From the NCBI GenBank assembly GCA_945861685.1, contig CAMAVO010000001.1, positions 1 through 53,738 on the forward strand: a stretch of 53,738 bases of DNA. The letters are read 5' to 3'. Shown piece after piece: positions 2,403-24,090 of the stretch. This stretch comes from Chitinophaga pinensis. Lineage in GTDB: Bacteria > Bacteroidota > Bacteroidia > SXHM01. Below the pieces are notes generated by a model, which searched no databases, had not been told where the DNA came from, and was given only the letters and a program-made list of their open reading frames with translations. How positions within the stretch are numbered: position 1 is the first letter of the stretch; every line of letters begins with the position of its first letter. Position numbers and translations under genes: made by a program.

Positions 2403-3116
2403 TTAACCCATTACCTCTTCCAGCACTTTGTGCGAGCGCACTTCGCTCATGCCTTGCAGGTGCATACGGTAATAGTTCATCAGCGTGGAAAGCAATTCTT
2501 TACGCTGTGTTTTATTGATGTTAAGCGTTGCCTGTTCGTGAATGTCATTGTTCATCAACAGCGAGAAAAATCGGGCCGTTTCCCCTGCAATAAAATTAGC
2601 ATGAATAGGTTTTCCGCTGAAAAAAATTCCTTCTTCCAGATCAAAAATGTTTTCGTTTTCTGAATAATAGTTTCCCGGAAAAATACCGAGATACCGGGAT
2701 AGTTGCACCAAAAAAACGAGATGAAAATTGGAACAATTATTTTGTTCTTCGTCTAACACTAAAATGCTTGAGTGTAGAAATTCAAACAGTGGAGGATTGC
2801 TTTCTTCTTCTTTTACTGAGCGGTAAAGCACCTCTGCCATAAACATTGCGAGCGAACATTTTGATGTGTTATAAGGAATGTCAGAAAAAGGTGGAGAGCA
2901 CTGCGCTTCTTTTATGCGCTGCAGGCTTTTGTTGGCTTTGTGTTCAATTGTTATTGCCAGACAGGTAAGCGGTTGCAACAGCGCGCTCTTTTTGTTTTTA
3001 CCGGTGTGTATGAGATAGCCTTGTAACCCAAACAGCTCGGTGTAAATGTTGGCAATTACCGCTTTGTCGTTGTAGCGGATGGTGCGTAACACGATGCCCC
3101 GTGTTGTGTGCAACAT
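2403..3116 (-). CDS. recO: DNA repair protein RecO
   Basis: 237 aa. The N-terminal OB-fold pattern MLHTTRGIVLRTIRYNDKAVIANIYT and overall length are typical of RecO. Confidence 0.8.
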   Translation of the reverse strand: MLHTTRGIVLRTIRYNDKAVIANIYTELFGLQGYLIHTGKNKKSALLQPLTCLAITIEHKANKSLQRIKEAQCSPPFSDIPYNTSKCSLAMFMAEVLYRSVKEEESNPPLFEFLHSSILVLDEEQNNCSNFHLVFLVQLSRYLGIFPGNYYSENENIFDLEEGIFFSGKPIHANFIAGETARFFSLLMNNDIHEQATLNINKTQRKELLSTLMNYYRMHLQGMSEVRSHKVLEEVMG

Positions 3117-5455
3117 CAGTTTACGATAAGGATTTTGGTTACGTGTGTTTGCGAACCATCTTCGTTGGATGCAAACACCAGATAAACACCGGCTGCCGCT
3201 TTTTCACCGTCAAAACCTTTTCCGTTCCATACGGCTTGTCCGCCTTGGGCTTTGGTTGCATACATGAGCTTTCCGCTGATGTCGGTGATTTTTACATCTG
3301 CATCTTTTACCAGGCCTTTTATTGCAATGGGTCCATCGTAATCGTGGTGCACAGGATTTGGATACGCATATACATCGTTAAAAATTTCACCGCCTTCAGT
3401 GGCTGTTCCTTTGTAAGAAACAATTCCTTTTTGTGTACCGATAAATACTTCGCCTGTTACATCATCAATAGCAAGACTAATGATGTTATTTGAAAAAAGC
3501 GGACTATTTTCTTCCGTGAAGTGAAGTAGTTCCTGGGTGCCGTCAGGCGACATGAGAAACACTCCGGCATTTTGAGTTCCAATCCATTTGCGGTTGCCGC
3601 CATCTACTGCTATGGCACTAACAATTTCGGTTTCAAAAAGGTATTGTGCGTAGCCGTCTTGTTCTATTAAAATCTGTTGTGCATCAAAGTTGCCGTTGCC
3701 GGAAAAAATTTCACCGGGTGAATAAAAAACCGCAATTCCTTTATCAGTTCCTACCCATACTTCTCCATCTAAATCTTCGGCAATGCTGTAGATGTAATTG
3801 CTGGGCAGTCCGCCATTGTTGGCTGCGGTGTTCATGCGTTTGTAGTTATCGTCTGAGGTGGTGCCGATAGTGTAGTTATCGTTAAATACTAACAGCCCGT
3901 TTCCATACGGCAGCATGAGCCATTTCTGGTTGTATGAGTCGATGATGAGGTCGCCCACAAGGTTTTGATTAAAAGCATTTCCGGGATTATAGTTTTGCCA
4001 GTTTCCGTCTGTTTTAAAAACTGAAATTGGTTTGGTAACATTTGAATTTCCTACCCAAAGATTTCCGTCTAAATCAAAATCAAGTCCGCCAATTCTTATC
4101 CAGTTAATACCGGAAAGAGGCAGCAGCGAAGAATTTCCGGTGGTGTCGTGTATGGCGGTTTGTGTGTTGTTGTTTATTTCAACCACGCCATTGAGCCAGG
4201 AACCTGCAAATACACGTGAAGAATTATTAGGGTCAACTGCAACGCGGATAATGTCAACCACATTGTTTCCGTTATCGTCTTTCGGGTAAATAGTGTTCCA
4301 GTTGTTATTGATGTAAGAAGCAACACCTTCTGATTTAAATAGCGGACCCCAGGATATATTTACTCCACCCGAAGCTACCCAGAGATTACTGTTTTCAACC
4401 GACATATCAAAGGCTGTTGCAAAGCGCGGACCGTTGGGGTGTGTGTTTGAAAAATTCCAGATATCGGTGTTGTGAACCAGGCCTTGATTACCATCTGCAA
4501 TCCATACATCGTTTATGCTTCTGGCAAATGCTTCGGAAGGTCTTGGTCCGGAATTACCAAAACCAAAATATTCATAAATTACCAACACGTTGGTGCCGCT
4601 GGCATCATACACGGTGAGGTTATAATTGCGGCAAACGGTCATGTTGTTATAACGCGAGGTTATGCTTTTTATATCGGGATGGCCAACGGTATCAAAGTAG
4701 TTCCAGTTGCTGCCATCGTAAACATACAGGGTGTCGTTGTCGTTTCCGGTTACCTGAATATTGGTGTAAATTTTACCGGCATGAAATTCTATTGCACTGT
4801 AAAGAGATACATCCTGAACTGTTGGTGGAAGGTTGTTATATTTTGACCAGAAATTATAATTTGCAAGGTTGGATGCATTTACATCGGCATGATAAATTCC
4901 ACCCGTTGTTGATGCATAAAATTCGTTTCCATCGCTGGTAAAATCGGTTACATTTATGTTGTCGCCATTAGGACCGATGTAGTAGGTGTCTTTGATTTCT
5001 TTCTTGATTAAATCCACCACTACAATTCCAAAACCGCAGGCTAAATAGGCGTAACTGTCTTTGAAAAATATTTTGTTGATGATTTTATTTCCCGGAATAA
5101 TTTTACGCTTGATGTCGGGAATGTTGATAATGCGGTTGTCCTGAATTAAATCAATGTTGGCATTGGTATAAGCAATCACCAACGTGTTGGTAAGACTGTC
5201 GTAATTAATGGTGCTGAAACCGATGTCGCTGAGGCCGGTGATTTTGCTGAGCTTATCAACAGTTGTTTCTGATTTGCTGTAGTAAAACAAACCTTCTTCT
5301 GAGGCGCAGTAAATGCGGTCGCCTGCTTCGGTTAAGGTTTTTGTGTTGGTGTAGGGTAAGTGGTCGCGCCATTGTCCAACGCCAACGCCTTGTGCAAACA
5401 CAAGTGAATTGATAAGCGAAAAAAACAATGTGATAAGGAGTTTGTTGTAGTGCAT
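3116..5455 (-). CDS. porZ: Two-component-regulator-propeller protein with T9SS C-terminal sorting domain, probable PorZ
   Basis: Has a signal peptide MHYNKLLITLFFSLINSLVFAQG. Repeated propeller blades (WVGT/WIGT/FIGT motifs) follow. The C-terminal ~80 aa (YAYPNPV...GVYLVFASN...KILIVN) look like a T9SS CTD. Size and recO adjacency fit PorZ. Start trimmed to ATG 5453-5455. Confidence 0.6.
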   Translation of the reverse strand: MHYNKLLITLFFSLINSLVFAQGVGVGQWRDHLPYTNTKTLTEAGDRIYCASEEGLFYYSKSETTVDKLSKITGLSDIGFSTINYDSLTNTLVIAYTNANIDLIQDNRIINIPDIKRKIIPGNKIINKIFFKDSYAYLACGFGIVVVDLIKKEIKDTYYIGPNGDNINVTDFTSDGNEFYASTTGGIYHADVNASNLANYNFWSKYNNLPPTVQDVSLYSAIEFHAGKIYTNIQVTGNDNDTLYVYDGSNWNYFDTVGHPDIKSITSRYNNMTVCRNYNLTVYDASGTNVLVIYEYFGFGNSGPRPSEAFARSINDVWIADGNQGLVHNTDIWNFSNTHPNGPRFATAFDMSVENSNLWVASGGVNISWGPLFKSEGVASYINNNWNTIYPKDDNGNNVVDIIRVAVDPNNSSRVFAGSWLNGVVEINNNTQTAIHDTTGNSSLLPLSGINWIRIGGLDFDLDGNLWVGNSNVTKPISVFKTDGNWQNYNPGNAFNQNLVGDLIIDSYNQKWLMLPYGNGLLVFNDNYTIGTTSDDNYKRMNTAANNGGLPSNYIYSIAEDLDGEVWVGTDKGIAVFYSPGEIFSGNGNFDAQQILIEQDGYAQYLFETEIVSAIAVDGGNRKWIGTQNAGVFLMSPDGTQELLHFTEENSPLFSNNIISLAIDDVTGEVFIGTQKGIVSYKGTATEGGEIFNDVYAYPNPVHHDYDGPIAIKGLVKDADVKITDISGKLMYATKAQGGQAVWNGKGFDGEKAAAGVYLVFASNEDGSQTHVTKILIVN

Positions 5456-6881: not shown

Positions 6882-7538
6882 TCAAATCTCGAACATTTGC
6901 CAGCGGGCATAATCATTCCTGAATACGCTTTGGGCGGCATCGTTCACTTCCTTACATATAGCATAGAGGCGGTTAAATTTTTCCATGCGCTCACGGGTGT
7001 AGCGCAGGCGTTTGCGCTTAAAATATTCCTGATCTATTTCTTTGGTGGCTACGTTTTGGGCAGCGGCTTCAAGGTTGGTTAATACGGCAGCGGGCATGCT
7101 TACTGCCGCAAGGTCTGCGGCATAATCATCGGCCACTTTTTTCATCACCATTAGCCACGATATAAGGTTAAGTGTGCGCGCCCTCAATCCGCTGCGCTTG
7201 TTAAACGCAAATTCCTTTGCTATGCGCTTATTGCCCGGAAATGCCTTTTTTACATAGTATTCAAGGTCCTCGGCAGCCAGTAGGCCTGCTGTTTTTGCTT
7301 TTTCAAGGTCTTCGGTATATCCCGTTTGTTCGTCAACAATAAGCTCGTCAGTCTTTTCACTCGAGCAAATTTCTTTTTGCGCATGCCAGTTATTGGCATA
7401 GGTTAGGTTCAAATCGGGGTCAAATGCAGTAAAAGCTGCCATGTTTTCTACAAAAAGACTGTGCATGGTGCTGCTTTTTTCCATTAAAACAGCGTCTTCC
7501 ATCGCGTAATCACGGTAAACTTGTTGTTGTTCTGTCAT
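6882..7538 (-). CDS. Hypothetical helical protein (orphan family member 1)
   Basis: 218-aa ORF with no recognisable catalytic motif. Shares a by-eye motif (EKAK...KEFAFNKR) with ORFs 40329..41012 and 46763..47695. Preceded by a ~390-bp non-coding leader. Confidence 0.6.
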   Translation of the reverse strand: MTEQQQVYRDYAMEDAVLMEKSSTMHSLFVENMAAFTAFDPDLNLTYANNWHAQKEICSSEKTDELIVDEQTGYTEDLEKAKTAGLLAAEDLEYYVKKAFPGNKRIAKEFAFNKRSGLRARTLNLISWLMVMKKVADDYAADLAAVSMPAAVLTNLEAAAQNVATKEIDQEYFKRKRLRYTRERMEKFNRLYAICKEVNDAAQSVFRNDYARWQMFEI

Positions 7539-20025: not shown

Positions 20026-20043
20026 TGTGGTGGGCAAATATCG

Positions 20044-20105
20044 GTTTTTTTACCACAGAGAAATTTGCCACTAAGGCACTAAGAACACCAAGGCTCACTA
20101 AGAAA
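20044..20105. repeat. Word-type repeat (TTTTTTACCACAGAG..., CACTAAG words)
   Basis: tttttttaccacagagaaatttgccactaaggcactaagaacaccaaggctcactaagaaa. Confidence 0.8.
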
Positions 20106-20362: not shown

Positions 20363-20791
20363 ATGAAAACAATTAAAATTTTAAGCTTGCTCACTTTTAT
20401 CGGATGTTTATCTGTTTTACATGGCTGTAAAAAAGGAGAAAAACCTTCCGTAGATTTTACTTTTCAAGGCGGTGGCTGCACAGCACCCTGCGCTGTGTTG
20501 TTTGATAACACTACAAAAGATGGCGAAACATTTCATTGGGATTTTGGTGATGGGCAAATCTCAGAAGACGAAAACCCTGCTGCGCATGATTATAATCAAG
20601 GAGGAACATACACTGTAACTCTAACTTCATCAAATGAGCATGGAACATCTGCAACCTCTCATGAGGTATTTGTTCAGAACTCAACACAATCTCAATTACC
20701 AACAGCAAGCTTTACTATAAATAATAACGGTTGTACAGCACCATGCACTGTTAGTTTTACAAATACATCTCAACTGCTATGCCATAGCTAG
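20363..20791 (+). pseudogene. Truncated PKD-domain lipoprotein gene
   Basis: Lipobox LHGC, then one complete PKD domain (FHWDFGDG...GTYTVTL). A second PKD domain starts (ASFTINNNGCTAPCTVSFTNTS) but ends abruptly after ~25 residues at the edge of a repeat cluster. Confidence 0.6.
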
Positions 20792-20807: not shown

Positions 20808-20916
20808 AAAAAATCTGTGAAATCTGTGGTGAAAGAATCTTCGCGGTAAAAAATCTCAGTGCTCTTAGTGTCCTTAGTGGTAAAAAAACCTTTGCGCCTA
20901 GTGGTAAAGAAAAAAA
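20808..20916. repeat. Cluster of four word-type repeats in reverse orientation (each ends GGT[GA]AA...)
   Basis: aatctgtgaaatctgtggtgaaa / atcttcgcggtaaaaaa / tctcagtgctcttagtgtccttagtggtaaaaaaa / cctttgcgcctagtggtaaagaaa. Confidence 0.8.
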
Positions 20917-20958
20917 CCTAATCCAGCTTCAGCACCGCCATAAACGCACTCTGCGGCA
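20917..20958. repeat. 42-bp direct repeat, copy A (duplicate of the lepA 3' end)
   Basis: cctaatccagcttcagcaccgccataaacgcactctgcggca is identical to 22212-22253. Confidence 0.95.
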
Positions 20959-20971
20959 TCAGCGTATTGTT

Positions 20972-22096
20972 TTATTGAAAAAGTTTGGTATAGTCTTTAA
21001 ACACATAGAGCTTTCCTCTTTTAGCCCCAGTTATTTCTTTAATTATTTCAAGTCTTTCTAATTCAGCTATCAATTTATAAACAGAAGGTAACGAAAGCCC
21101 CGTAATTTCTTTTGCTTGTTGCGCATGTATAACAGGCCGTTGAAACAGATAATTTATAAGCAGTTGAGCATTGTGAGAACGACTTCCCATTGTTTGAAGT
21201 TTTGCATCAACCTCTTTTTCAAGCTTTAAAATTTTGTCAAATGTGGCAATACTGCTTTTAGCCGTTTCAATAATACCTACCAGAAAAAATTTAAACCACT
21301 GAAGAACATCATTTTTTTCTCTTACACGGGTTAAATTATCGTAATACAAGGTGCGATTTTTTTCAAAAAAATCAGATAAATAAAGGATTGGCTTTTTCAG
21401 AATTCCTTTCTCAACAAGATAAAGCGTAATCATTAAACGACCCACGCGCCCATTACCATCTAAAAACGGATGTATGGTTTCAAACTGATAATGAATCAAA
21501 GCAATTTTTAATAATTCAGGAAAAAAGAACTCGGTATTATGAGCAAAATTTTCCAAATCGCCCATATAATCATTTATACTTGAATGAACCGGAGGTATAA
21601 ACGTTGCATCATTTATACTAGCGCCCCCAATCCAGTTTTGACTGCTTCTATACTCACCTGGAAGTTTATGTTTTCCCCTTACCCCGTTCAATAAAATTTG
21701 ATGAGTTTCTTTAATCAATCTTGATGAAAGTGGCAGCTTCTCTAACCTTGCTATTGCTGAATTTAATGCTGAAATATAGTTTTGAACCTCTTCCCAATCA
21801 TCGCGTTTTTCCTCGTTCACATCTTCTATGTCCAAAAGAGCTTCTTCAATATTGGTTTTTGTTCCCTCTATTTTACTTGATTGGGTTGCCTCTTTTAATA
21901 CATGCATACTGATAAACAAGTCAATGTTTGGGATATATTCAGAATACATATCTAGCCTGCCAATTTGCCTGTCGGCCTGACTCAGAAGATTTAGCAACTC
22001 CATATCTTCAATCTTCCAAACCCTGTTGATTTTTTCAGGCTGAAAGCTCTTATAGGAGCCTTGATTAATAAATTGACCAGATTTGAAATTTTTCAT
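20972..22096 (-). CDS. Fic-family protein (class II, N-terminal inhibitory helix; C-terminal wHTH-like)
   Basis: HPFLDGNGRVGR is the Fic motif HxFx(D/E)GNGRxxR. SSKIEG is the (S/T)xxxE(G/N) inhibitory motif. 374 aa. Confidence 0.9.
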   Translation of the reverse strand: MKNFKSGQFINQGSYKSFQPEKINRVWKIEDMELLNLLSQADRQIGRLDMYSEYIPNIDLFISMHVLKEATQSSKIEGTKTNIEEALLDIEDVNEEKRDDWEEVQNYISALNSAIARLEKLPLSSRLIKETHQILLNGVRGKHKLPGEYRSSQNWIGGASINDATFIPPVHSSINDYMGDLENFAHNTEFFFPELLKIALIHYQFETIHPFLDGNGRVGRLMITLYLVEKGILKKPILYLSDFFEKNRTLYYDNLTRVREKNDVLQWFKFFLVGIIETAKSSIATFDKILKLEKEVDAKLQTMGSRSHNAQLLINYLFQRPVIHAQQAKEITGLSLPSVYKLIAELERLEIIKEITGAKRGKLYVFKDYTKLFQ

Positions 22097-22150
22097 TGTG
22101 CACAGAGAATTAACTTTAACAAAGGTACACCTTATTTAAGAAAATAAATA

Positions 22151-22185
22151 AAATCTTAATTAGCGATAACTGCTAATTAAGATTT
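22151..22185. promoter_or_regulatory. Perfect 14-bp inverted repeat upstream of the Fic gene
   Basis: aaatcttaattagc-gataact-gctaattaagattt, 55-89 bp upstream of the Fic start. Candidate operator. Confidence 0.45.
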
Positions 22186-22211
22186 CGCGCAAAATAATTA
22201 ATAGACTGAAC

Positions 22212-22253
22212 CCTAATCCAGCTTCAGCACCGCCATAAACGCACTCTGCGGCA
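22212..22253. repeat. 42-bp direct repeat, copy B (functional lepA 3' end)
   Basis: Identical to 20917-20958. Encodes [12 protein letters not shown] plus the stop. Confidence 0.95.
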
Positions 22254-24021
22254 CCTCAACCGAGCCCACCTGCTTCATACGTTTTTTACCTTCTTTCTGC
22301 TTTTCCAACAGTTTACGTTTACGCGAAATATCACCACCGTAACACTTGGCAGTAACGTCTTTACGCAAAGCCGAAATGGTTTCGCGGGCAACAATCTTGG
22401 CACCTATGCCCGCCTGTATCGCAATCTGGAATTGCTGTTTCGGAATAAGCTCTTTCAGTTTCTCGCAAATTCTGCGACCGAATTCATGCGCTTTACTGCG
22501 GTGGATAAGGGCAGACAAAGCATCCACCTGTTCGCCATTCAGCAGAATATCCAGTTTTACCAGATCCGATTCGCGGTAGTCTAATGGGTTGTAGTCAAAC
22601 GAGGCATAGCCGCGCGAAATGCTTTTCAGTTTATCGTAGAAATCAAAAACTATTTCCGCCAGCGGAAGTTCAAAAATCAACTCAACACGGTCGGTAGTTA
22701 AATACGTCTGGTTCTTCATAATACCGCGCTTTTCCATGCACAGGCCCATGATAGCGCCAATGTATTCGCTCTTGGTAATAATGGTTGCAAGAATGTAAGG
22801 CTCCTCCACGTGATCCAGTTTGCTCGGGTCAGGAAACTCAGAAGGATTACGCAAAATTGTCTTCACCAGTTTGGTGTTAAACGAGTGGTACGATACGTTG
22901 GGAACGGTAGTAATCACCGTCATATTAAACTCGCGCTCCAAACGCTCCTGAATAATTTCCATGTGCAGCATACCCAAAAAACCGCAACGGAAACCAAAGC
23001 CCAGCGCGGCACTGCTCTCGGGCTCCCACGTAAGCGAAGCATCGTTAAGTTGCAGTTTTTCCATACTGTCGCGCAGCTCTTCGTAGTCATCGGTATCAAC
23101 GGGATAAATACCCGCAAACACCATCGGTTTCACATCTTCAAAACCCTGAATAGTTTTTAAGCAAGGATTATCAACATGGGTAACCGTGTCGCCTACTTTT
23201 ACCTCACTCGCCTTTTTTATGCCTGAAATAATATAGCCTACTTCGCCCGGACCCAGTGTGTTTTTGGGTTCGGGAGTTAATTTTAAAACGCCTGTTTCGT
23301 CAGCATTGTATTGGTGATCGGTAGCGGCAAATTTTACAAGGTCACCTTTTTTCAGCGTGCCGTTAAACACACGTATGTAAGCAATAATTCCGCGAAAAGA
23401 ATTGAACACCGAATCAAAAATCAGCGCCTGCAAAGGAGCTTTCGGGTCGCCCTTGGGACAAGGGATGCGTTCAATAACCGCGTCCAGAATTTCAAAAACT
23501 CCGTCACCCGTTTTACCCGATGCCGCCATAATTTCTTCGCGTTTGCAGCCGAGTAATTCCACCACCTGATATTTTACTTCTTCAGGATTAGCACTTGGTA
23601 AATCAATTTTATTCAGCACGGGAATAATCTCCAGATCGTTGTTCAGCGCCAGATACATATTACTGATGGTCTGCGCCTGAATACCTTGTGAGGCATCAAC
23701 CAGCAACAGCGCACCTTCGCAGGCAGCCAGTGAGCGCGATACTTCGTAAGAAAAGTCAACGTGTCCGGGAGTATCAATCAGGTTAAGCGTGAATGATTGC
23801 CCTTTATATTCAGGTCTTTCGCCACGATACGTGTATTGCATTTGTATTGCGTGGCTCTTAATAGTGATGCCGCGCTCGCGCTCCAGGTCCATATCATCCA
23901 GCACCTGCGCCTGCATATCGCGCTTGTTAATGGTGTTGGTAAATTCAAGCAGACGGTCGGCCAGCGTGCTCTTGCCGTGGTCAATATGGGCTATTATGCA
24001 GAAATTGCGGATGTTTTTCAT
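22213..24021 (-). CDS. lepA: Elongation factor 4 (LepA)
   Basis: [21 protein letters not shown]1 motif, [12 protein letters not shown]. Start trimmed to MKNIRNF. Confidence 0.95.
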
Positions 24022-24031
24022 TTTCGGGGCG

Positions 24032-24039
24032 CAAAGATA
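24032..24039 (-). promoter_or_regulatory. -7 box TATCTTTG, 10 nt upstream of the lepA ATG
   Basis: The reverse complement of caaagata matches TAnnTTTG. Confidence 0.45.
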
Positions 24040-24050
24040 GAAATAAGAGG

Positions 24051-24090
24051 CAATAGCCAATTAGCCAAATAGTGCCTTAGCGGTAAAGAA
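24051..24090. repeat. Word-type repeat (CCAA[TA]TAG / CTTAG words)
   Basis: caatagccaattagccaaatagtgccttagcggtaaagaa. Confidence 0.7.

Follow-up and report, generated by a model that had tools for sequence, protein, structure and literature searches.

Genes for defence and toxin-antitoxin systems rank with the most mobile ones of bacteria, but many of them lie in chromosomes without a recognisable vehicle. Integrative elements that enter the 3′ ends of tRNA or protein genes carry a replacement gene end within attP, and their integrase-less derivatives are cis-mobilisable elements. Another arrangement, insertion with long target duplication, has been described for restriction-modification units (Nobusato et al. 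2000, Gene 259:99; Furuta, Abe and Kobayashi 2010, PMC2853133), in which the flanking direct repeats exceed 30 bp, are unique in the genome, are present only once in a relative with an empty site and frequently overlap a gene 3′ end, as a 46-bp repeat overlaps 15 bp of HI0105. In that class other units substitute allelically at the same locus; the mechanism is not known there, and cargo-driven DNA breakage was suggested as the cause (PMC2853133). Homology-facilitated illegitimate recombination has been documented experimentally in transformable bacteria (PMC6382021, citing Meier and Wackernagel 2003). Here we analyse a Fic gene lodged between two copies of the lepA 3′ end in a 53,738-nt stretch of DNA deposited as Chitinophaga pinensis (contig CAMAVO010000001.1, assembly GCA_945861685.1), hereafter the window, whose genome is referred to as G000.

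In outward form the locus compares closely with the restriction-modification class. That class was delimited (Furuta et al. 2010) by repeats >30 bp, a single copy in an insert-free relative, an insert <20 kb, the absence of a mobility gene and a repeat that is not multicopy; the window cassette has 42-bp repeats, an empty site in the congener G005, a 1253-bp insert, no mobility gene and a two-copy repeat. It departs from the class in its cargo, a Fic gene in place of a restriction-modification unit. The unit is very probably a mobile inserted cassette with a spare tail, and the best explanation of the findings as a whole, which we regard as probable, is a tail-bearing SoFic-type cassette spread by host recombination. 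The lepA-downstream region was compared in seven other species of the genus, G001, G005 and G007 among them, and the features of the locus are as follows (window coordinates).

20808-20916, no strand assigned: putative ancestral lepA-downstream sequence, a T-run followed by CACCACTAAGG-type word repeats, common to G001, G007 and G005
20917-20958, minus strand: distal repeat, predicted orphan displaced lepA tail; in the empty-site genome G005 the same flank lies directly after its single tail
20959-20971, minus strand: 13-bp spacer from the Fic stop to the displaced lepA tail, forming the cassette 3′ edge; identical in G001
20972-22096, minus strand: Fic gene, 374 aa (Pfam, PDB and PADLOC matches)
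22097-22211, minus strand: cassette upstream region of 115 bp, 110/115 positions identical in G001
22151-22164 and 22172-22185, no strand assigned: perfect 14-bp inverted repeat with a 7-nt spacer (repeat search), operator-like, beside the Fic promoter
22212-22253, minus strand: proximal repeat, by its sequence the lepA tail in service
22213-24060, minus strand: intact lepA (elongation factor 4; ORF list; Pfam GTP_EFTU, EFG_C and LepA_C), 86-94% nucleotide identity to congeners

The 42-mer CCTAATCCAGCTTCAGCACCGCCATAAACGCACTCTGCGGCA has exactly two copies in the window, at 20917-20958 and 22212-22253, as the original prediction held, and none of 100 shuffles gave any match (0/100); a search for it across the whole 3.04-Mb assembly, which had been proposed as a check, returned a copy number of 2, i.e. 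no third copy. If one mismatch is allowed, 45 nt are repeated. On the minus strand the 42-mer reads TG, then CCG CAG AGT GCG TTT ATG GCG GTG CTG AAG CTG GAT TAG, then G, which corresponds to 2 nt, the last 12 lepA codons, the stop codon and 1 nt, in agreement with the coding content first assigned to it. Translation of lepA probably begins at the ATG of MKNIRNF, for a product of 601 aa (615 aa in the longest ORF). The segment between the repeats (20959-22211, 1253 bp) contains a single ORF with 115 bp on its 5′ side and 13 bp on its 3′ side, and GC content is 0.32-0.37 in the cassette vs 0.45-0.49 in lepA. This segment reads as a self-contained single-gene SoFic-type cassette with its own promoter and operator, flush against the lepA stop; the proximal tail would be the one in service, and the distal tail appears to have been displaced downstream and to be without function. 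The statement that no mobility gene is present also stood: neither the ORF list nor Pfam gave a recombinase ORF between ybeY and lepA, and the four PF00589 matches of the genome are on contigs C14, C114, C173 and C31.

That the repeats might be an assembly artefact had been named as a possible objection. It does not hold, because an independent ENA assembly contig (L093, 99.9% identical to the window) has the same structure with both repeats, the metagenome-assembled genome (MAG) G001 of a second species has the same repeat-Fic-repeat structure, the lepA-proximal repeat is traversed by one contig of run X4, and the cassette and its flanks have equal depth (1:1). The 21 runs found were all Logan k=31 contig sets, whose contigs break at the 42-bp repeat, so that the joints are invisible in them.

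Comparison with relatives, likewise proposed as a check for empty sites, yielded one in G005 and alternative content in others. G005 has a single lepA tail ending …GCTGGATTAG; TTTTTTTCACCACTAAGGGCAC comes directly after it, ahead of a 307-aa lipoprotein gene (junction GCTGGATTAG/TTTTTTTCACCACTAAGG). The flank found after this single tail is also present behind the distal repeat of G000 and G001, and behind the stop of the PIN gene (vapC) in G007. Because the congener G005 has the empty site, the segment is an insertion at the 3′ end of lepA, which it leaves intact. G001 has a layout identical to that of G000, with the same repeat spacing of 1295 bp; its two repeat copies differ at 2/42 positions, and since all four haplotypes of these alleles are present among congeners, the crossover point is not readable from them. 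In G007, exactly the Fic slot is occupied by a pair of ~700 bp (a small ORF and a PIN-domain gene, VapBC-like; L011 6622-7232) without a long repeat. The last 18 nt of the G007 PIN gene match the lepA tail at 13/18 positions; VapC proteins commonly share a similar end peptide, and the match may be due to chance or may be a worn repeat. G002, G003 and G004 have different content behind lepA.

The whole ybeY-lepA interval is a variable region. Between lepA and ybeY, G001, G005 and G007 have another region, opening with the 307-aa lipoprotein gene and spanning ~3.6 kb in G001 and G007. Over 5.2 kb on the ybeY side of the slot, G001 (L008 6799-12001) and G007 (L011 7235-12438) are 99.92% identical, as compared with 91-92% on the lepA side; this identity step at the slot therefore indicates either a very recent recombination ending there or a chimeric MAG contig. 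Within the window itself, arrays of short words (CACTAAGG, CACAGA and GGTAAAAAAACC) at 20043-20105 and 20820-20912 are inverted around a truncated PKD-domain ORF (20363-20791).

The inserted segment had been said to carry only a class II Fic gene with the inhibitory motif SSKIEG and the upstream region of that gene, and its single 374-aa ORF matches Pfam Fic_N (E 9.3e-27) and Fic (E 5.8e-18). The catalytic core motif HPFLDGNGRVGR fits HxFx(D/E)GNGRxxR, and SSKIEG, within the Fic_N domain, fits (S/T)xxxE(G/N); the product is predicted to be an AMP-transferase of the class II Fic type that contains its own inhibitory helix. By phmmer, residues 31-370 align to the PDB SoFic structures 3EQX/3ZCN (E 4e-31), including the C-terminal DNA-binding-like domain, and the PADLOC SoFic model matches residues 14-373 (E 8.6e-121). 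The NCBIfam SoFic equivalog gave 165 bits, below its cut-off of 550, and the protein is therefore a relative of SoFic and not an orthologue. The cassette is a toxin-like and probably anti-phage module.

Upstream of the gene, TACCTTTG (22120-22127, minus strand, 23 nt before the Fic ATG) is what we take to be a Bacteroidota-type -7 box, following the consensus TAnnTTTG. The perfect 14-bp inverted repeat announced at 22151-22185 is present, with its 7-nt spacer. Searching for it elsewhere, as had been suggested, turned up related palindromes (CTTAATTAAG, or CTTAAATAAG…CTTATTTAAG; CTTAAnTAAG-type) 30-130 bp upstream of most Fic homologues in all genomic contexts, often straddling the presumed -33 element. 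Because similar palindromes precede most homologous Fic genes in every context, the inverted repeat belongs to the Fic control region and is no recombination site. It is most likely an operator bound by the winged-helix domain at the C-terminus of Fic itself, and hence autoregulatory. Read on the lepA strand, the same repeat forms a terminator-like hairpin (15 pairs) with a T-run 27 nt past the lepA stop, the sole one in the region; by this terminator-like score the hairpin may end the lepA transcript, and most likely it insulates the cassette from lepA read-through. The spacer at 22165-22171 is flipped between the two species (GATAACT in G000, AATTATC in G001, L008 5535-5541), the reverse complement plus one change, with identical arms, a pattern suggestive of inversion at a hairpin or by template switching.

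Between G000 and G001 the Fic ORF is identical at 1124/1125 positions and the cassette at 1247/1253, as against 93.3% identity in lepA, 90.6% in the aldehyde dehydrogenase gene and 91.2% in deoC (7-9% divergence). At the left edge, identity falls within 1-2 nt of the cassette (mismatch at 20957, also at 20917). On the right side, the first differences (22165-22186) already fall within the cassette, 26-47 nt short of its edge, followed by those at 22212 and 22227; four of the six cassette differences belong to the flipped 7-nt spacer. The gene is carried by 2/8 congeners (G000 and G001), the rest having only paralogues at 33-46% identity. Its best homologue outside the genus, in another family, is 82% identical at the amino acid level, and scans of reference genomes and JGI metagenomes revealed no homologue >83% identical outside the genus. 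An exact-protein look-up matched only G001, the ENA contig L093, which has the window's own layout, and a 1310-bp Logan contig. Because a near-identical cassette sits in two species with diverged flanks and is patchily distributed, it has moved recently between species.

Repeats of this kind recur around other Fic genes. Exact direct repeats of at least 19 bp span the Fic homologue at 11/60 reference-genome loci (the 60 being those with sufficient flank) vs 2/212 shifted control windows, and in an independent metagenome set the same test gave 4/44 Fic loci vs 0/53 controls. Pooled, the two sets amount to 15/104 vs 2/265 (Fisher p = 2e-7, or 8e-6 without three artefact loci). Among the candidates rejected, the flanking repeats at L022 and L032 are paralogous neighbour genes and that at L047 is a tandem copy. 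At L067, a Fic cassette lies behind folB; the repeat there consists of 90 bp of folB tail, 51 bp of it exact, and the target is single-copy (an empty site) in four relatives. In a fifth folB relative, G415 (L222 ~1855-2059), ~200 bp between folB-tail copies contain several CTTAAATAAG/CTTATTTAAG palindromes of the Fic-upstream type and no ORF; this interval is probably what remained of a Fic cassette after deletion. A Fic homologue in Solitalea agri (L026) lies between a tRNA-Pro(GGG) gene (5258-5332) and a copy of its 3′ ~57 nt starting at 7236, with ~1.9 kb between gene and copy and no integrase-sized ORF adjacent.

Other cargo is found in the same setting. A degenerate lepA-tail pattern was found in 156/401 genomes of the class, with a second copy only in G000, G001 and G252; an apparent double tail in G237 proved to be a contig-end overlap and no duplication. 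In G252, a member of another family, a DUF433 and DUF5615 pair lies between 64-bp lepA tails (L214 1409-1472 and 2153-2216, spacing 743 bp). G000 itself has two further loci. On contig C210 (L227), a UPF0175 and DUF3368 pair is enclosed by methylmalonyl-CoA mutase tails (3063-3097 and 3847-3881), the repeat comprising 35 bp exact and ~70 bp at 91%. Among congeners, the tail is single-copy in 6/6 with a match in the stretches fetched, and G001, G003, G005 and G006 share one downstream flank. The C210 DUF3368 pair is PIN-like and corresponds to the PADLOC candidate PDC-S70. On contig C156 (L228), three tails of a BNR/T9SS-sorted gene (~3164-3316, 3850-4024 and 4731-4823) separate a PIN pair and a YoeB/DUF2683 pair. 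A ParE pair lies beyond the third C156 tail, and the toxin-antitoxin stack is integron-like, with no integrase.

The loci have several properties in common. At four of them, lepA (G000 and G252), folB (L067) and the mutase gene (C210), the repeat ends within 2 nt of the target stop, and at these four and C156 (5/5) the cassette is co-oriented with the target gene. No recombinase was found next to any cassette inspected, and inspection revealed no end motif shared among cassettes with different tails. Repeat lengths range from ~35 to 134 bp across loci, often imperfect, and differ even at lepA (42 vs 64 bp).

Differences between the paired tails indicate which copy is native. All sense-codon differences are synonymous (11/11: three in L067, six in C210 and two in G001), and both stop-codon differences preserve a stop (2/2: TAG/TAA in C210 and TAG/TGA in G252, with TAG closing the working copy and TGA the orphan). 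In L067 and C210 the displaced distal copy has the alleles of the nearest relatives, and the working copy is foreign-looking. These patterns suggest that the two tails diverged as functional gene ends in different lineages, from which it would follow that a replacement tail comes in with the cassette and displaces the native one downstream. The earlier view that the insertion restores the 3′ end of lepA survives in the form of an element-borne replacement end, as the purely synonymous differences at sibling loci suggest; its other half, simple target duplication, appears not to be borne out. ‘Target duplication’ would accordingly be a misleading description of a cassette that appears to import its tail.

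How such a unit could arise and travel may be envisaged as follows. A conserved gene would provide one homology arm for a donor fragment consisting of the gene end and the cassette. First capture would occur by homology-facilitated illegitimate recombination, the free end joining inside the recipient's gene tail, so that the recipient gene would be followed by the donor tail, the cassette, the native tail and the native flank. The orphan tail would afterwards serve as a second, portable arm, allowing entry into any genome with lepA by double crossover, or by single crossover of an excised circle; loss would proceed by repeat-by-repeat recombination, and toxin-like cargo would favour retention of the cassette. 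Such capture would account for the imported tail, for the variable repeat length and for the boundary at the stop codon, where interspecies homology stops. As to the agent, we lean somewhat towards host homologous recombination alone, anchored on the conserved gene and with no dedicated recombinase. It is preferred over one site-specific enzyme because of the varied tails in one genome, the varied lengths, the long imperfect repeats and the stacked arrays.

Several observations weigh against this explanation. G000 and G001 have no donor lepA tract in common next to the cassette (mismatches at 22212, 22227 and 22255), so crossovers would have to be confined to ~42 bp, which a site-specific enzyme explains more simply. 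In the window itself the two copies are identical, and the imported tail is proposed there by analogy with the siblings G001, L067, C210 and G252. The base after the stop is species-specific yet equal in both copies (sense strand: G/G in G000, T/T in G001), a pattern more in keeping with gene conversion or a true target duplication. All compared genomes are MAGs, and the G001 contig may be a chimeric assembly at the slot. There is no read-level support for excision, circles or within-population empty sites, the k=31 contigs breaking at the repeat.

The foremost alternative, though an unlikely one, is a non-autonomous integrative element that uses the 42-bp tail as its att site and is integrated and excised in trans by a recombinase of the tyrosine or serine type, the gene for which would lie elsewhere, on a plasmid or an integrative element. 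Such an element would carry its own gene end, as classical elements with a replacement end do, so that an imported working tail and a repeat ending at the stop are what it predicts; the repeat boundaries common to the two species, the limitation of the shared tract to the cassette, the Fic homologue at the tRNA-Pro gene of L026 (a classical integrase target) and the PF00589 matches elsewhere in the genome fit as well. It has more difficulty with the tails themselves. A single genome employs at least three different gene tails, the lepA repeats measure 42 bp in one family and 64 bp in another, and repeats reaching 90-134 bp and imperfect throughout fit a fixed att core less well. Moreover, the inspected cassettes lack a recombinase beside them, a common end motif was not seen, and G000 has no further lepA-tail copy that would represent an attP-like site. 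The original prediction of a minimal single-gene cassette mobilised in trans is accordingly retained in its first half, since the empty site, the two species and the other tails argue for a mobile minimal cassette, and doubted in its second, a dedicated integrase in trans.

An insertion that predates the G000/G001 split has a smaller chance still. Under it the insertion would be old and vertical, the 99.9% identity would mark a recent conversion or exchange tract, G005 would have lost the cassette through deletion between the repeats and G007 would have swapped it. The 2/42 differences between the G001 repeats are in its favour, as is recombination that is evidently frequent at the slot; in addition, with five differences in the upstream 47 bp (22165-22211), the tract of identity may stop short of the cassette edge. 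Four of these five, however, are one event, the 7-nt spacer flip, and the scenario requires loss, replacement and a conversion tract that happens to match the cassette almost exactly; the distribution is also patchy (2/8 congeners). Even if correct, it would still imply a recent interspecies exchange of the cassette, altering the date and not the nature of the element.

A literal target duplication by a staggered break is very improbable, although it would fit the two identical copies in G000 and the species-specific post-stop base common to both copies in G000 and in G001, and although the published class (PMC2853133) has the same outward anatomy, including 46-bp repeats overlapping gene 3′ ends. 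A duplicated orphan would be free to decay, and neutral decay would yield 11/11 synonymous changes with a probability of roughly 0.25^11; stops, too, were exchanged only for stops. In L067 and C210 it is the working copy, not the orphan, that is the more foreign-looking allele. Nor would a stagger place its boundary at the stop codon each time, or produce identical 42-bp boundaries in two species. Lastly, the suggestion that the cassette is the remnant of a larger genomic island after loss of its integrase and most cargo is scarcely credible: gene-end direct repeats without a recombinase and low cassette GC are indeed the expected residue of a decayed island, but the unit has just 115 bp and 13 bp of non-coding DNA with no pseudogene fragments, is identical in its minimal form in two species, has equally minimal counterparts at folB, the mutase gene, the BNR gene and lepA in another family. 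No larger lepA-tail island was found among the 156 genomes with a recognisable tail, and no relative was seen whose repeats enclose a larger element with both this Fic gene and an integrase.

The locus displays four states of one slot: it is empty in one species, filled by the same cassette in two, taken by another cassette in a further congener and, at the lepA end in another family, occupied by different cargo. An imported working tail and a displaced native tail with silent differences only would point to a vehicle-free route in which the gene end is the address label and host recombination does the work. We tentatively extend this to a widespread recombinase-free mobile class of toxin, toxin-antitoxin and single-gene defence cassettes, each carrying a short tail of a conserved gene as a portable homology arm. 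With the same reserve, members of the class might install themselves behind the recipient's orthologous gene whatever lies downstream, stack, and be lost repeat by repeat, the lepA tail acting as a landing pad across Bacteroidota families. If general, the route would explain the spread of small defence genes across species barriers and their pile-up behind particular core genes, and it would widen the ‘long target duplication’ phenomenon of restriction-modification units beyond DNA-cutting cargo.

Among known systems, the cargo itself is closest to SoFic of Shewanella oneidensis (PDB 3EQX, 3ZCN; a PADLOC single-gene defence model), with which the window Fic has full-length similarity and both motifs in common. 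Integron arrays and C156 are alike in the promoter-proximal stacking of small toxin-antitoxin cassettes with repeated separators; unlike integrons, C156 has neither IntI nor attC, and its separators are copies of host gene tails. The Fic cassette does not resemble an integron cassette either, having 13 bp after the Fic stop, its sole inverted repeat upstream of the gene and no integrase nearby. With attP-type integrative elements the locus shares gene-end direct repeats, an element-borne copy that keeps the gene intact and identity that stops at the gene end, but it differs from them in lacking an integrase in or beside the unit, in having one cargo gene, and in the many tails per genome and the long, variable, imperfect repeats. 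In open-access text, no literature on integrases targeting the lepA end was found, and no paper on Fic or toxin-antitoxin cassettes with this layout was found beyond citations of the restriction-modification work.

Homology-facilitated illegitimate recombination has one anchor, an illegitimate joint and no element enzyme, and a joint in the tail of the anchor gene would yield the anatomy found here; it is known from laboratory crosses and is not known as a source of toxin or defence cassettes enclosed by repeats. The restriction-modification long target duplication is likewise a small selfish unit with no mobility gene, gene-end repeats and an empty-site relative. In contrast to it, the cargo is a Fic AMP-transferase here and PIN, YoeB and DUF5615 toxin pairs at sibling loci, and because none of this cargo (Fic AMP-transferase and RNase toxins) cuts DNA, the published DNA-breakage rationale cannot apply. 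It further differs in that the repeats end at the stop and that, at sibling loci, the differences between copies are silent and the orphan is native-like, which points to an imported tail. As far as can be judged from sequence, the outward anatomy thus matches that of the restriction-modification class in all but its cargo, with the Fic or toxin-antitoxin cargo and the imported tail as its apparent new aspects.

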